A DNA stretch of 64,000 nucleotides from a virus (Duplodnaviria; Heunggongvirae; Uroviricota; Caudoviricetes). A program made the position numbers and the translations under genes. The notes under the pieces are model-generated. The model searched no databases and was not told the DNA's origin. It saw only the letters and a list, made by a program, of their open reading frames with translations. Location: the IMG/VR virus record IMGVR_UViG_2778261505_000002. One strand, 5' to 3'. Numbering within the stretch: the stretch's first letter is position 1; each line of letters opens with the position of its first letter. Positions 1 to 55,946 of the stretch are shown here, in pieces.

Positions 1-1446
1 TCTTTCAGCGAAATGTTGCAGGCATGGACCCGCAGCGGTGCGTTGCAGGAGCAGGTGGCAAACAAAATGCAGGAGTGGTTTGAATCTGGCCTGCAACAGT
101 GGGATATCTCCCGTGACGCACCTTACTTCGGTTTTGAAATCCCGAACGCACCGGGCAAATACTTCTACGTCTGGCTGGACGCGCCGATTGGCTACATGGG
201 TTCTTTCAAGAATCTGTGCGACAAACGCGGCGACACTACCAGCTTCGACGAATACTGGAAGAAAGACTCCACCGCCGAGCTGTACCACTTCATCGGCAAA
301 GATATCGTTTACTTCCACAGCCTGTTCTGGCCTGCCATGCTGGAAGGCAGCAACTTCCGCAAGCCGACCAACCTGTTTGTTCACGGCTATGTGACGGTGA
401 ACGGCGCGAAGATGTCCAAGTCTCGCGGCACCTTTATTAAAGCCAGCACCTGGCTGAATCATTTTGACGCCGACAGCCTGCGTTACTACTACACTGCGAA
501 ACTCTCTTCGCGCATTGATGATATCGATCTCAACCTGGAAGATTTCGTTCAGCGTGTGAATGCCGATATCGTTAACAAAGTGGTTAACCTGGCCTCCCGT
601 AATGCAGGCTTTATCAACAAGCGTTTTGACGGCGTGCTGGCAAGCGAACTGGCTGACCCGCAACTGTACAAAACCTTTACTGATGCCGCTGAAGTGATTG
701 GCGAAGCATGGGAAAGCCGCGAATTTGGCAAAGCTATCCGTGAAATCATGGCACTGGCTGACCTGGCTAACCGCTATGTTGATGAACAGGCTCCGTGGGT
801 GGTGGCGAAGCAGGAAGGACGCGATGCCGATCTGCAGGCGATTTGCTCTATGGGCATTAACCTGTTCCGCGTGCTGATGACGTACCTGAAACCGGTACTG
901 CCGAAACTGACTGAACGTGCAGAAGCATTCCTGAATACAGAACTGACCTGGGATGGTATCCAGCAACCGCTGCTGGGCCATAAAGTGAATCCGTTCAAGG
1001 CACTGTATAACCGTATCGATATGAAACAGGTGGAAGCACTGGTGGAAGCATCCAAAGAAGAAGTGAAAGCCACAGCTGCACCGGTAACTGGCCCACTGGC
1101 TGACGACCCGATTCAGGAAACCATCACCTTTGACGACTTCGCCAAAGTTGACCTGCGTGTGGCGCTGATTGAAAACGCGGAGTTTGTCGAAGGTTCTGAC
1201 AAACTGCTGCGCCTGACGCTGGATCTCGGTGGTGAAAAGCGTAATGTCTTCTCAGGCATCCGTTCCGCTTATCCAGATCCACAGGCACTGATTGGTCGTC
1301 ACACCATTATGGTGGCTAACCTGGCTCCGCGTAAAATGCGCTTCGGTATCTCTGAAGGCATGGTGATGGCTGCTGGCCCCGGCGGGAAAGATATCTTCCT
1401 GTTAAGCCCGGATGCCGGTGCTAAACCTGGCCACCAGGTTAAGTAA
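1..1446 (+). CDS. metG: methionyl-tRNA synthetase, C-terminal 481 codons (5' end outside window)
   Basis: Frame open from base 1; translation matches recalled E. coli MetG almost residue for residue through the C-terminal tRNA-binding domain; stop TAA 1444-1446. Confidence 0.95.
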
Positions 1447-1952: not shown

Positions 1953-2687
1953 ATGAAAAAGTTGAAAAGTTTAGAAATCCCTGGGACTGGTTATAAATTC
2001 TTTATGGACAACGCGGAGTGTGCGCCTAACGCGTTGGAAAAAATACAAAGTCTTATCAACAGCCTTACTGAAGAAGCGAAAGAACTGAAGAGCGAGGCGA
2101 CAAAGGACAATACAGCTAAAATCCAATGCTTAAATCTCGTTTCTTATTGTTTATATCAAGTGTCCAAAACACTGATTAAAGGCAATATCTATTACGACGA
2201 TGAAGACACCTCGACACCTGAAGAAAAAGATAGCGATGAAGAACTCTATGAAGATATCTCTACCAGTGCGGGTCACGCTGCCTTCGATGCTATGGGTGAA
2301 TCGTCAGGCATCAGATCGTTTGTTGAACAGAACAATTCGACAATAATGATTGAGTACTGTGAACAAACAAGCTCCAAGGCCATACATGTTCTTCACGATG
2401 TTGCTGCAGGGGTTCGCTGTGAGGCTGAAGCGGTCAGAAAAGATGTATTTGGTGCAGACAGTAATACCGTGAAAGCGTTCATCAACAGTGCTCTGCTAAA
2501 TTCTTACTCAAACCTTATCGTCAATGCGGCACTATGCGCAAATTCAGGTGAAGAACACATTGTCATAACTGAAACCAAACATGAGCATCAACAGTCACCA
2601 ACCATAGAAGAGGTAACTGCATTGGCTATCAAACAGGCGAGTGAAATTAGTGATGAAATTCTCTCTCTGCTAAACAAAACTATGTAA
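1953..2687 (+). CDS. hypothetical acidic protein (244 aa)
   Basis: ORF with D/E-rich stretches; no recognisable motif. Confidence 0.5.
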   Translation: MKKLKSLEIPGTGYKFFMDNAECAPNALEKIQSLINSLTEEAKELKSEATKDNTAKIQCLNLVSYCLYQVSKTLIKGNIYYDDEDTSTPEEKDSDEELYEDISTSAGHAAFDAMGESSGIRSFVEQNNSTIMIEYCEQTSSKAIHVLHDVAAGVRCEAEAVRKDVFGADSNTVKAFINSALLNSYSNLIVNAALCANSGEEHIVITETKHEHQQSPTIEEVTALAIKQASEISDEILSLLNKTM

Positions 2688-2811
2688 AACATTGATAATG
2701 GCGGTCACAATTTGATTCTTTTCTATAAGAATCCGTTGATCGCCACTACTCCCCTTCCATACCTGCAATCATACCCTTAAATATCAATAGGTTATGGTTG
2801 TTTATACAAAT

Positions 2812-3640
2812 AAGAAAACAACTAAATAACAGATCAACGAAACGTCAACGCTTTCACCCGATTTGGTCTAAAAAATTGACGTTTTCACACATCACTTCTT
2901 ATACCCGTAACTCTACGCAGCAGACAGCGCCACAGCGTCCAATTTTCACCACAGACGACCCAACACACTACCAACAAAAACATACGCTCAAAATCGCTCC
3001 CGTTGCGTTACACAACCATATAAACAACTTATTTTCAGTCATAACAAAACAACTAAATAACACACATGCCATTCCCAAAAACAACCAACCTCTTTATGGC
3101 AGGCTACCGAAAAGACCCACCTCTTCTCCCCAGGCTACCGGACAACCAACCTAACTTTCACAGGCAATCCGAAAACATTCATACGCGCGATACCCACGAC
3201 ACGCCATTCCCCAAACAGCGAAGAAACACCAGAATCACTGAAACCCCAACGAAGCCTGTAACCGCAAGGATTCTCTCAATCCCAAAAGACACGAAACAGA
3301 ACAATCACGGGAAACGCCATTACCCAATACACGAACAACTACAAAAGCCTTTCACACACTCCAGACAAACAACTCAAACACAATAACGAAAGCAATCGCC
3401 CACCTGCCATTACTCCATACACGGAGAAGAACAATCACCAAAACGACGAGAACACCCCATAGAAGAACCACCGCAAAACGAACGAAACCACATACACCGA
3501 CAGAGAAAACAACACACCCAATTCACCAACAGAAATAGTCGCCGTATAGAACATTCTGGAAGGAGTGAGCATTAACGCCTATAGAGAGGTTGAGACAGAT
3601 AAAACACAACATGTATAGCGAAGAAGCCAGGTATGTATAA
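2812..3640 (+). ncRNA. candidate non-coding transcript: C+A-rich, G-poor tract
   Basis: About 830 bp with strong strand skew (A and C dominate, few G), no credible ORF on either strand, dyad-like half-site at 5' end and hairpin terminator at 3' end. Confidence 0.3.
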
Positions 3641-3649
3641 GTGGGGAGG

Positions 3650-3676
3650 GAAGGAGGGGTGTCGCCTCCTTTTTCG
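3650..3676 (+). terminator. rho-independent terminator
   Basis: AGGAGG-GGTGTCG-CCTCCT hairpin followed by TTTTT. Confidence 0.65.
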
Positions 3677-3737
3677 TATTTATTCAACTCCTGATTTTAT
3701 CCCCCCGTAACACCCCTACGGTCAGCCTTCGGTCCAT

Positions 3738-3875
3738 ACAGGGAAAAGGCTGCATCCCGCTACAGAAACGGCTGGGTTGCCTTCGGGGAACGGCTGGAGG
3801 TTTTCAGGGAAACGGTCGAGTTGCCTGTGTGGATTTCGGGAAAAGGCTCGATGCCGGGTCAGGAACGGTGGCGTA
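3738..3875. repeat. iteron array, six direct repeats of core GGGAAACGGCTG at about 22 bp spacing
   Basis: Copies at 3741, 3764, 3785, 3808, 3838, 3861 with minor variation. Confidence 0.6.
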
Positions 3876-4203
3876 CCGGTATAGCGAGAGGGAGAGTTGC
3901 GGCTACCCACCTGTAATGTGCGGGAAGAAGAGAGGCGCTCACGTAGGCGGACTTGCTTACCGCTGGATTCCCTCTGAATGCCCAGCTACAGCGTAATTGT
4001 GCCAGACAGCCAACGGGTCACAATCGATTTCAGTAGGTTTTTGGGGAGAGGATTACTCTGCCACCAGCCACTTTCGGCCACTAAATCAGAATAATGTAAA
4101 AAGTGTACTCGGTACTGAACCTGAAAACTCACTGCCAAAACCACATTCACCGGAATAAAATCCTTTTTCGCCTGTGCGTTATTGCGATAATAACACCATC
4201 AAG

Positions 4204-4217
4204 AAAACATGTTGTTT
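4204..4217. promoter_or_regulatory. dyad-like AAAACATGTTGTTT (early family, imperfect)
   Basis: Family member upstream of ATG 4230. Confidence 0.4.
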
Positions 4218-4229
4218 AAGGATTGCTTT

Positions 4230-4559
4230 ATGTTTACAAATATCGACATCAACCAAATCAAGAAATTAACTCAAAAAGAGTTTGATCAGTTTTATGAGTT
4301 AGAAGGTTGGTCTTCCACTCTGATCAATTCAAGATGGGTGCTGGAGCTGATGACTCGTGATGACGCACCTGCTTTGATGATTTGCGACATGGGTGAAGAT
4401 GCTGACTTTATGGATATGAGCGAATTTTGTGTGGACACATACAACCGCAGCCAGAAGTACTACTTCACATGCGATAGCGAGAATGACGTTATTTCTAAGG
4501 TCTATCTTCACCTCGTCCAGCATTGGGACGTTCAGGAGTTTCTTGAAGTATTCGAGTAA
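4230..4559 (+). CDS. hypothetical small acidic protein (109 aa)
   Basis: ATG 4230 with AAGGA RBS 8 nt upstream; the track start 4209 lies inside the operator; D/E-rich. Confidence 0.5.
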   Translation: MFTNIDINQIKKLTQKEFDQFYELEGWSSTLINSRWVLELMTRDDAPALMICDMGEDADFMDMSEFCVDTYNRSQKYYFTCDSENDVISKVYLHLVQHWDVQEFLEVFE

Positions 4560-6184: not shown

Positions 6185-6353
6185 TTATTAAGGCCATCAG
6201 CATTGGTGGCCTTAAATGACCATCCTGTTTCCCGCAGGCTAAAAACACCAACCTCTTACCTCCAGGCAACCGATAAACCCACCTGTTCCCGTCCGGCTAC
6301 CGCAACTTTCCACTTTGACGCCTTATTCGTACAACGATAATTAACACCAACAA

Positions 6354-6388: not shown

Positions 6389-6871
6389 ATGAATTTTATC
6401 GCCACTGTAAACGCACCCGCACATGGCAATATCGCTGTAACGTTCTCTGACATTGAAAAACGAGTACTTGGTGCATGGCGCGACAATGAGACGGTAGAAC
6501 TGTCAGCACAAGAAAAATGCATTATTGCACGCGACATCATTGGCAATCGTCGTTACTCGCGGGTATTTGAGAAAGCGTATGTGGTAAATTCTGGATTCGG
6601 AACGTTCGTCTTTCCGGTGCGCTCCGGGCGATTCTGCCAGTCCAAGCTGATTGAGTTCGCTACGCAGATTTCTGTCTGGATTAAAACTCAATCGTCGTTC
6701 AAATTTTCCGACGATGAAGCAGTATCGCAGGGGATGCGGATCGCCAACAATGCAATTAAATGCAAAAACATTACGTATACCGCTGGCGTTGATACATGGA
6801 AACTGTTTTGCGCTAACTTTATGCTGAATGTATACGCAAGCAACCGCATCCACATCCTTGATGGCGTGTAA
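6389..6871 (+). CDS. hypothetical protein (160 aa)
   Basis: ORF preceded by operator dyad and AAGGA RBS. Confidence 0.55.
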   Translation: MNFIATVNAPAHGNIAVTFSDIEKRVLGAWRDNETVELSAQEKCIIARDIIGNRRYSRVFEKAYVVNSGFGTFVFPVRSGRFCQSKLIEFATQISVWIKTQSSFKFSDDEAVSQGMRIANNAIKCKNITYTAGVDTWKLFCANFMLNVYASNRIHILDGV

Positions 6872-55699: not shown

Positions 55700-55774
55700 G
55701 ATGGTGTAGCTCAGCGGTAGAGCAGTTGGCTGTTAACCAACTGGTCGGTGGTTCGAATCCACCCACCATCGCCA
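55700..55774 (+). tRNA. tRNA-Asn (anticodon GTT)
   Basis: Cloverleaf folded by hand: 7 bp acceptor, D arm, anticodon loop CTGTTAA, T loop TTCGAAT, 3' CCA encoded. Confidence 0.85.
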
Positions 55775-55779
55775 ATTTA

Positions 55780-55866
55780 GGGGAGTTAGTCCGTAGAGGT
55801 AGCGGTGTAGACTGTAAATCTACTGTCATTGCGACTCGGGTGGTTCGACTCCATCACTCCCCACCA
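55780..55866 (+). tRNA. tRNA-Tyr (anticodon GTA), long variable arm
   Basis: Acceptor GGGGAGT/ACTCCCC, anticodon loop CTGTAAA, T loop TTCGACT, CCA encoded. Confidence 0.85.
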
Positions 55867-55870
55867 AATT

Positions 55871-55946
55871 GCCGGTTTAGCTCAGTTGGTAGAGCGCCTG
55901 CCTTGTAAGCAGGATGTCAGCGGTTCGAGTCCGTTAACCGGCACCA
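55871..55946 (+). tRNA. tRNA-Thr (anticodon TGT)
   Basis: Acceptor GCCGGTT/AACCGGC, anticodon loop CTTGTAA, T loop TTCGAGT, CCA encoded. Confidence 0.8.

Follow-up and report, generated by a model that had tools for sequence, protein, structure and literature searches.

The window analyzed here is the whole 64,000-nucleotide (nt) stretch of the IMG/VR virus record IMGVR_UViG_2778261505_000002 (Caudoviricetes), in which nearly all genes lie on the plus strand. Close to its left end stand metG, apbC, and two uncharacterised genes, and to the right of them lies a tract of ~0.85 kb, with its core at 2900-3550, whose plus strand is rich in A and C and poor in G and T. An earlier note, made from the sequence alone, had singled out this region as a G-poor non-coding stretch between an operator-like site and a terminator and had proposed either a protein-sequestering RNA or a DNA-level element. 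We find the tract to be a real, conserved, and unannotated non-coding element of unusual design, and no existing annotation, Rfam family, or paper describing it was found. Tentatively, we read it as a giant untranslated spacer resembling a Rho utilization (Rut) site, which would load the termination factor Rho, insulate the early genes that follow, and be closed by a hairpin. Its matches to SSU5 and pHCM2 relatives identify the window as an SSU5/pHCM2-type phage-plasmid. To our knowledge, the regulation of these elements is essentially unstudied, and our literature search found no paper on their non-coding RNAs or their lytic origin.

The tract is widespread among such elements. The earlier note had suggested a search for homologous tracts, and these turned up in PLSDB, in E. 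coli, in SSU5 and Cyrano, and in Klebsiella phages. The 1 kb around the tract has matches in 243 of 5,426 complete E. coli genomes (4.5%), all of them on plasmids of ~110 kb and none chromosomal. In PLSDB, 839 plasmids carry a match, and their hosts belong to Klebsiella, Escherichia, Enterobacter, Salmonella (pHCM2), Citrobacter, Cronobacter, and other genera. The region is 95-97% identical to the phages Cyrano, CMS-2020a, and PhiR41_1, about 72% identical to Klebsiella phage-plasmids, and 69% identical to SSU5, and a conserved block at its left boundary, used as a search anchor, recovered 67 further IMG/VR loci. Wider taxon sampling through a neighboring 483-nt gene returned close relatives only, together with an element from Yersinia pestis NCTC5923 whose contig (L091, L093) lacks the A/C-rich tract and has a different upstream region; its 483-nt gene and downstream region are 94% identical to SSU5. 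A truncated copy comprising the first ~780 nt of the tract was also observed on large Klebsiella IncFIB/IncHI1B plasmids of 150-270 kb (L015 4001-4780, L016 3880-4660), where it adjoins a type I restriction-modification/DUF262 locus and appears to be a remnant of phage-plasmid fusion.

Base composition sets the tract apart from the rest of the window. Positions 2812-3551 hold 298 A, 239 C, 90 G, and 113 T (A+C 72.6%, G 12.2%, T ~15%), which bears out the dominance of A and C and the low G that the earlier note had described for 2812-3550. Across the 64 kb, segments of the same 740-nt length average 50.4% A+C (standard deviation 3.2%), placing the tract about 7 standard deviations above the mean, and the runner-up segment reaches just 58.8%. 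When composition was followed in 100-nt bins, as that note had also proposed, GC skew ran from -0.38 to -0.60 and AT skew from +0.18 to +0.69 over 2801-3500; this skew is confined to the tract, with nothing similar in the 64 kb, and its sign reverses at ~3550, beyond which the sequence is purine-rich. All homologues examined share the A/C skew, across at least six genera and including the 67 further IMG/VR loci, with fractions of 0.33-0.41 for A, 0.29-0.34 for C, 0.12-0.19 for G, and 0.13-0.18 for T. In 78-nt segments through 2900-3560 the median C/G ratio is 2.6 and the lowest 1.6, and half of all segments in the 64 kb with a ratio of at least 2.5 fall inside the tract. YC dinucleotides occur at 14.4 per 100 nt in the tract versus 9.7 window-wide.

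The tract is non-coding on both strands, as the earlier note had judged from the lack of a credible open reading frame (ORF). Stop-free frames are frequent on the plus strand because T and G, on which stop codons depend (T with G or A), are scarce, and none is kept in position and frame across 13 taxa. The idea that the region holds one or more low-complexity protein genes draws on ORFs called there by some annotators (CYRAN_103 on the plus strand, SSU5_108 and Klebsiella ORFs on the minus strand), on open frames as long as 227 codons in pHCM2, E. fergusonii, and C. freundii, and on the hydrophobic character of the hypothetical minus-strand peptides. These annotations disagree in strand and position from record to record, and RefSeq annotates none. 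In close relatives the frames are interrupted by indels of 1, 2, 10, 11, 23, 52, and 62 nt, no ribosome-binding site or start codon is conserved for them, and a 3-nt periodicity of substitutions is absent from all nine ungapped segments in 36 non-redundant sequences (chi-square at most 4.5). We give a coding role next to no credence. A functionless spacer, with the skew left behind by mutation or duplication, is hardly more credible. Portions of the tract do resemble old duplications of a 70-135 nt unit, the Yersinia relative does without it, and in pECAZ155_2 (NZ_CP019002.1, L094) a 1.26-kb IS3-family insertion with a 3-bp overlap at the junction interrupts it at window position 3451-3453 in a plasmid still carried by a clinical isolate. 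That tolerance implies that an intact tract is dispensable for plasmid replication and maintenance. Against a mere spacer stands the conservation of the sequence itself. Among the E. coli, SSU5, and Klebsiella clades the tract is 0.57-0.70 identical, a level comparable to the whole coding sequences of three conserved neighboring genes (0.49-0.78), whereas the four-fold sites of those genes are essentially saturated between clades (0.29-0.44, with one value of 0.57). Because identity persists where the neighbors' four-fold sites are saturated, this comparison indicates that purifying selection acts on the sequence of the tract and not on its composition alone. The same composition is kept in all lineages, and in the core, conservation of at least 95% among the 36 sequences is reached by 27-48% of columns, a share that varies with the majority base; conservation is highest in A columns and lowest in G columns, which fits selection against G. 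Both the coding and the neutral-spacer explanations are effectively excluded.

The position of the tract is equally distinctive. For the 48 loci with enough flanking sequence, grouping by homology sorted the left-hand 1 kb into nine unrelated sets, kept the tract together as a single set, and placed 41 of the downstream 1-kb segments in one set. Since the left flank is so varied while the tract and most downstream flanks are uniform, the tract is the right border of a hypervariable cargo slot, and variability begins directly left of the boundary block at 2692-2746. The cargo in this window is the set of four genes named above; in other taxa the slot holds YdfZ, LprI, Ivy, GIY-YIG, and other genes. 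The metG copy is a full-length methionyl-tRNA synthetase gene beside apbC (window 13-1446), is also found upstream in pEC16-526_1 and Cyrano, and, with apbC, is limited to the E. coli clade. The cargo gene nearest the tract is directed into it in 12 of 13 annotated loci. Published expression values (given as log2(fpkm+5), where fpkm is fragments per kilobase per million reads) for a lysogen of E. coli LF82 carrying Cyrano, which is 96% identical to the window, place the cargo gene CYRAN_102, classed as a moron, at 45-59 fpkm in LB medium, and CYRAN_103, which corresponds to window 2798-3154, at exactly 0 fpkm in both LB replicates and near the floor in DMEM and macrophages too (PMC9928086, S1 Table). 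A terminator scan detected no intrinsic terminator between the two.

Several further features lie within and around the tract:

2692-2746, plus strand: left boundary block TTGAtAatGGCGGTCACAAtTTGA..TTTCTATAAGA..CCGTTGATCGCCAC, near-invariant in 13 taxa
2796-2831, plus strand: degenerate early-promoter-like module, homologous to early modules and invariant in the alignment
2810-2831, plus strand: half operator ATAAGAAAACAACTAAATAACA, a member of a dispersed operator family
2838-2906, plus strand: inverted repeat CGAAACGTCAACG (2838-2850) / TTGACGTTTTC (2876-2886), then TCTTATACCC (2897-2906), invariant in 13 taxa
2900-3550, plus strand: core A/C-rich, G- and T-poor tract, with the skew in all homologues and no coding signal
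3002-3062, plus strand: internal promoter/operator-like module GTTGCGTTACAC..TAAACAACTTATTTT, which aligns with the early promoter at 4182-4215
3068-3434, plus strand: dispersed ~27-nt repeats GCCATTMCYCMATACACGGAGAAGAAC starting at 3068, 3203, 3316, and 3406, from a pattern search against shuffles
3079-3170, plus strand: three tandem 31-nt units ACCCACCTCTT-N6-CAGGCTACCGAAAAG, conserved in all clades
3551-3647, plus strand: purine-rich 3' segment with a CCGTATAGA box (3541-3549 abuts), marked by the skew reversal
3637-3683, plus strand: hairpin with a terminator-like inner stem at 3648-3675 and a T-run, from the terminator scan
3741-3875, plus strand: six GGGAAA(A/C)GGCTGG-like boxes at 22-30 nt spacing, conserved in all clades
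6214-6302, plus strand: second array of the 31-nt unit, ACCCACCTCTT-N6-CAGGCTACCG, in a syntenic place in all taxa examined

At the left end, the arms GGCGGTCA and TGATCGCC of the boundary block could pair, with one G.U in the plus-strand RNA. The promoter- and operator-like modules that follow relate to an early promoter/operator family with the consensus (TGn)GATAAT-N9-10-AAGAAAACAAnTTGTTTT, in which AAGAAAACAAnTTGTTTT is a palindrome; its sites lie at 1578, 4182-4215, 6352, and 45826, with others on the plasmid, and presumably constitute the regulon of the element's main repressor. By homology, 2796-2831 is a decayed copy of this module. The half operator that the earlier note had placed at 2812-2830 was recovered at 2810-2831, and a second one lies at 3041-3062 inside the internal module, whose palindrome is complete in other clades (TAAACAAGTTGTTTT) and degenerate in E. 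coli. The two half operators form a 22-nt direct repeat with 95% identity that includes an exact 16-nt repeat, AAACAACTAAATAACA, at 2816 and 3047, in agreement with the recurrence noted earlier at 2816 and 3046. The segment at 2838-2906 is weakly sigma-70-like (TTGACG, 18 nt, TATACC) and failed the promoter scan because its -10 element lacks the final T; no canonical sigma-70 promoter for the tract passed the scan in E. coli, pHCM2, or Klebsiella.

Further into the tract, the three 31-nt units are 65-74% identical to one another and repeat at three helical turns. One of them contains CCAGGCTACCG at 3130-3140, a motif that the earlier note had recognized correctly but placed 2 nt off, at 3128. 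Its partial copy, reported at 6240-6300, falls within the second array, where the 31-nt unit recurs two to three times at 6214-6302. That array directly precedes the promoter of the conserved 483-nt gene at 6389-6871 (phrog_1641) and has counterparts in relatives (L002 7996-8026; L004 7637-7692). For the ~27-nt repeats, four of the six matches to the GCCATTMCYCMATACACGGAGAAGAAC pattern in the 64 kb fall within 3068-3434, a total of six that none of the shuffled sequences attained; in the SSU5 clade the box is present five to six times. An array of the ToxI type, as in type III antitoxins, where repeats that are nearly identical precede a terminator and a toxin gene, was considered for the 31-nt units and rejected, given their identity of only 65-74% and the lack of any gene within the following 500 nt.

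Folding calculations suggest that the tract, if it acts as RNA, acts unfolded. The plus-strand RNA from 2912 to 3680 (769 nt) has a minimum free energy of -114.9 kcal/mol (-0.15 per nt) with a z score of -0.65 against shuffles, the minus strand folds worse than its shuffles (z +1.6), and RNAalifold on 13 taxa returned only sparse structure with a positive covariation term (+2.18) and no supported fold. The largely unstructured plus-strand RNA anticipated in the earlier note is therefore consistent with both calculations. These values and the absence of an Rfam match also led us to reject a structured RNA of the GOLLD/ROOL type. A scan of the window at Rfam gathering thresholds found three tRNAs only, and an E-value scan of 2600-4300 gave one chance-level match. 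The three tRNA genes are clustered at 55700-55943; the related plasmid pEC16-526_1 has four annotated tRNAs (Ser, Thr, Tyr, and Asn). Two inverted repeats in the repeat listing (I3, I8) had prompted the idea that CCACCUCUU/CCACCTCTT units pair with the purine-rich 3' part, and this was also rejected: z scores across the 13 taxa range from -1.0 to +1.1, and composition alone accounts for the apparent complementarity of CCACCUCUU to the purine tail.

The exception to this lack of structure is the hairpin at 3637-3683, in which pairing of UAUAAGUG with CGUAUUUAU extends the inner stem. G.U pairs and three compensatory changes are kept, which indicates that the hairpin forms in plus-strand RNA only. 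Its free energy is -18.9 in E. coli (z -3.2), -17.4 in Cronobacter, and -20.7 in Buttiauxella, with z scores of -2.1 to -3.2 across the three; in SSU5 it is weak (-11.1, z +0.6), and the SSU5/pHCM2 clade has no U-tract. The clean terminator described at 3650-3676 thus stands as a hairpin at 3648-3675 with a T-run in this window but does not extend as such to the SSU5/pHCM2 clade. A similar qualification applies to the discrete transcription unit that the earlier note envisaged: it has operator-like modules on the left and a plus-strand hairpin on the right, but no canonical promoter, and its first half stands at 0 fpkm in the lysogen.

How might such a sequence work? Because the tract is built almost solely of A and C, transcripts crossing it would be untranslated and unable to fold, and we suggest that it functions as single-stranded plus-strand RNA. 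Rut sites have an optimal length of 60-90 nt, are biased toward C over G, and have little structure, and the consensus of the primary binding site of Rho favors A and C at most positions (PMC12360218). The tract presents the C-over-G bias throughout 2900-3560, limited structure, and, with its indels and lack of any conserved frame, no sign of translation; it also lies downstream of co-oriented genes in nearly all annotated loci. In composition it is a closer fit to what Rho is known to prefer than to the preferences of any partner of a sponge RNA. A bias that extends over ~650 nt would leave room for several Rho hexamers. Rho loaded on the tract RNA could then end transcription arriving from expressed cargo genes, so that the repressed early genes downstream would be shielded from cargo read-through and also from leakage at the operator-bearing, promoter-like modules within the tract itself. 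A final stop, or protection of the 3' end, might come from the hairpin at 3637-3683, and the 31-nt and GCCATTAC boxes are candidate sites for a phage or host factor that modulates the barrier, for example at induction. We regard a Rho insulator as the most economical explanation because it accounts together for an A/C-rich RNA that is unpaired and untranslated, for the location at the cargo border, and for the drop in expression.

A number of observations weigh against this interpretation. A barrier requires only roughly 100 nt of Rut sequence and the tract has ~650 nt, and a Rut-like composition alone fails to explain the 57-70% identity and the long repeated boxes. No periodicity of 8-13 nt in C, YC, or A, as expected for Rho subunit spacing or helical phasing, was found in the tract. 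In pJN2-26 the upstream gene is directed away from the tract, and the tract is still kept. The drop from 45-59 to 0 fpkm in LF82 comes from counts per gene in which strandedness is not established and 3' ends are lacking, and the zero could reflect fast decay or some other lack of read-through. Finally, in SSU5 the second site of the 31-nt unit falls between two divergent genes, an arrangement that suggests recognition of at least this box at the DNA level.

This last point leads to a possible, if doubtful, alternative in which the tract is a DNA platform of protein sites, whether a lytic origin or helicase-loading zone, an enhancer or silencer, or a recombination anchor at the cargo slot. Strand asymmetry would then keep both unwound strands free of hairpins. 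The repeat of the 31-nt units at three helical turns and their recurrence before another promoter are as expected for protein sites on DNA, and the tract sits at a recombination-prone border with a change in the sign of GC skew at ~3550. The element moreover encodes its own DnaE, DnaB-like helicase, RecA, UvsW-like helicase, and RNase HI. Just past the hairpin, at 3681-3712, is a near-invariant block, TTCAAcTCCTGATTTTATCCCCCCGTAAC, which holds a DnaA-box-like TTATCCCCC matching TTATCCACA at 7 of 9 positions, and after it come the six GGGAAA(A/C)GGC boxes at roughly two-turn spacing. These boxes may be sites of a DNA-binding protein or part of a lytic origin; they differ from the RepB iterons, form the sole array with iteron-like spacing, gave no signal of RNA structure over 3690-3910, and could be part of one element with the tract or separate from it. 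Proteins that bind double-stranded DNA, for their part, need no 650-bp asymmetry that persists between the boxes. An iteron origin consists of tandem 17-22 bp initiator sites at helical spacing beside the initiator gene. The GCCATTAC boxes of the tract are irregularly spaced at 41-142 nt, no AT-rich unwinding element is present, and the RepB-type replicon, a repB gene with different iterons (TATGCTGTCAGCGGT), lies 33 kb away. An iteron-type origin was accordingly rejected, and a plasmid origin at the tract is excluded because repB and its iterons are elsewhere. In pEC16-526_1 the RepB-family initiator gene has arrays of (G/T)TATGCTGTCAGCGGT iterons on both sides (L086 28620-28730, L087 1094-1645), about five upstream at 21-bp spacing and at least ten downstream, in a P1/RepFIB-like arrangement. 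An R-loop origin was rejected as well: by nearest-neighbor energies (hybrid minus duplex), the RNA:DNA hybrid is not favored over the duplex for plus-strand RNA (-0.043 kcal/nt against a window mean of -0.032, rank 38%) and is unfavorable for minus-strand RNA (+0.040), so that an R-loop origin has no thermodynamic support.

Alternatively, the region could be a unit that is derepressed in lytic growth and yields an abundant, unfolded RNA of 0.65-0.87 kb, which would titrate a host single-stranded-RNA-binding factor or a phage protein and so reprogram the host. Rho, a cold-shock protein, S1, Hfq, or a phage protein could be the partner, bound by the boxes or by a C-rich surface. We consider this unlikely. 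It would make sense of the early-family modules at 2796-2831 and 3002-3062, the plus-strand specificity of the 3' hairpin, the five to six 27-nt and three 31-nt boxes, and the selection on sequence beyond composition, and silence in the lysogen is consistent with a repressed early gene. That silence also means that no accumulation was seen in the lysogen, and the promoter scan and the Rfam searches described above offer such a transcript neither a canonical promoter nor a known family. An unfolded RNA with no protection would, we expect, be unstable and be cut short through termination by Rho. The motifs of the familiar partners give little help. The richness in ARN and AAN triplets that the earlier note had invoked did not hold up, since four consecutive ARN triplets occur once (1.0 expected from dinucleotide shuffles) and AAnAAnAA three times (2.3 expected), and the Hfq-type argument fails with it. 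A CsrA-type sponge was rejected because GGA is depleted rather than enriched (4 in 640 nt, or 0.6 per 100 nt, versus 1.33 window-wide). GcvB uses a GU-rich seed to target C/A-rich sites; a sponge for this seed was rejected when a crude duplex test found that tiles of the tract are not outliers in complementarity. A search for an antisense partner elsewhere on the plasmid found none, with only the operator half-site recurring. A more specific version, in which the tract RNA acts on induction as a decoy in trans for Rho or another single-stranded-RNA-binding factor and so brings about genome-wide antitermination through an RNA rather than through a protein such as P4 Psu, with the 27- and 31-nt boxes recruiting a phage protein to protect the RNA or load it, strikes us as quite improbable.

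The tract, maintained by selection right at the edge of the cargo slot, is a candidate device by which phage-plasmids take up arbitrary expressed cargo without disturbing lysogeny. Phage-plasmids of the SSU5/pHCM2 type are common in clinical Enterobacteriaceae and carry resistance genes and other cargo. If the Rho interpretation is true, no Rut-type element described so far would come near the tract in length or conservation, and the tract would be a convenient natural substrate for learning what Rho recognises. If its action is instead in trans or on the DNA, it would represent a new kind of phage regulatory element.

Comparison with known systems helps to place the tract. With iteron and R-loop origins such as P1 oriR, lambda ori, and T4 oriF/oriG, it shares direct repeats and a skew switch beside it, and the element has its own replisome, a UvsW-like helicase, and RNase HI; it differs in having no adjacent initiator gene, AT-rich unwinding element, regular box spacing, or favored hybrid. 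Sponge RNAs (CsrB/CsrC and RsmY/Z for CsrA; CrcZ for Hfq/Crc) are likewise non-coding and have multiple single-stranded repeated motifs, but these are motifs of 3-8 nt where the boxes of the tract are 27-31 nt, and the tract has no GGA in loops, no enrichment of AAnAAnAA or ARN, no Rfam match, and no accumulation in the lysogen. Temperate phages also have early leaders, untranslated, that govern termination, namely lambda nutL/nutR, HK022 put, and the P4 immunity leader. These settle what becomes of the transcription complex, and like the tract they are non-coding and lie just downstream of repressor-controlled early promoters. The tract is far larger in scale and contains neither boxA/boxB nor a put-like covarying structure, and its internal complementary repeats do not exceed what composition yields. 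The strongest resemblance in composition is to Rut sites and Rho-dependent terminators, such as lambda tR1 and those involved in the silencing of prophage genes by Rho (PMC12360218), which are also untranslated, biased toward C over G, A/C-preferring, and little structured, and which lie downstream of expressed genes and, in prophages, guard lysogeny against read-through. Relative to these, the tract is ~650 nt long rather than the usual 60-90 nt, and it adds sequence conservation across genera, long repeated boxes, operator-like sites, and a conserved hairpin at its end.

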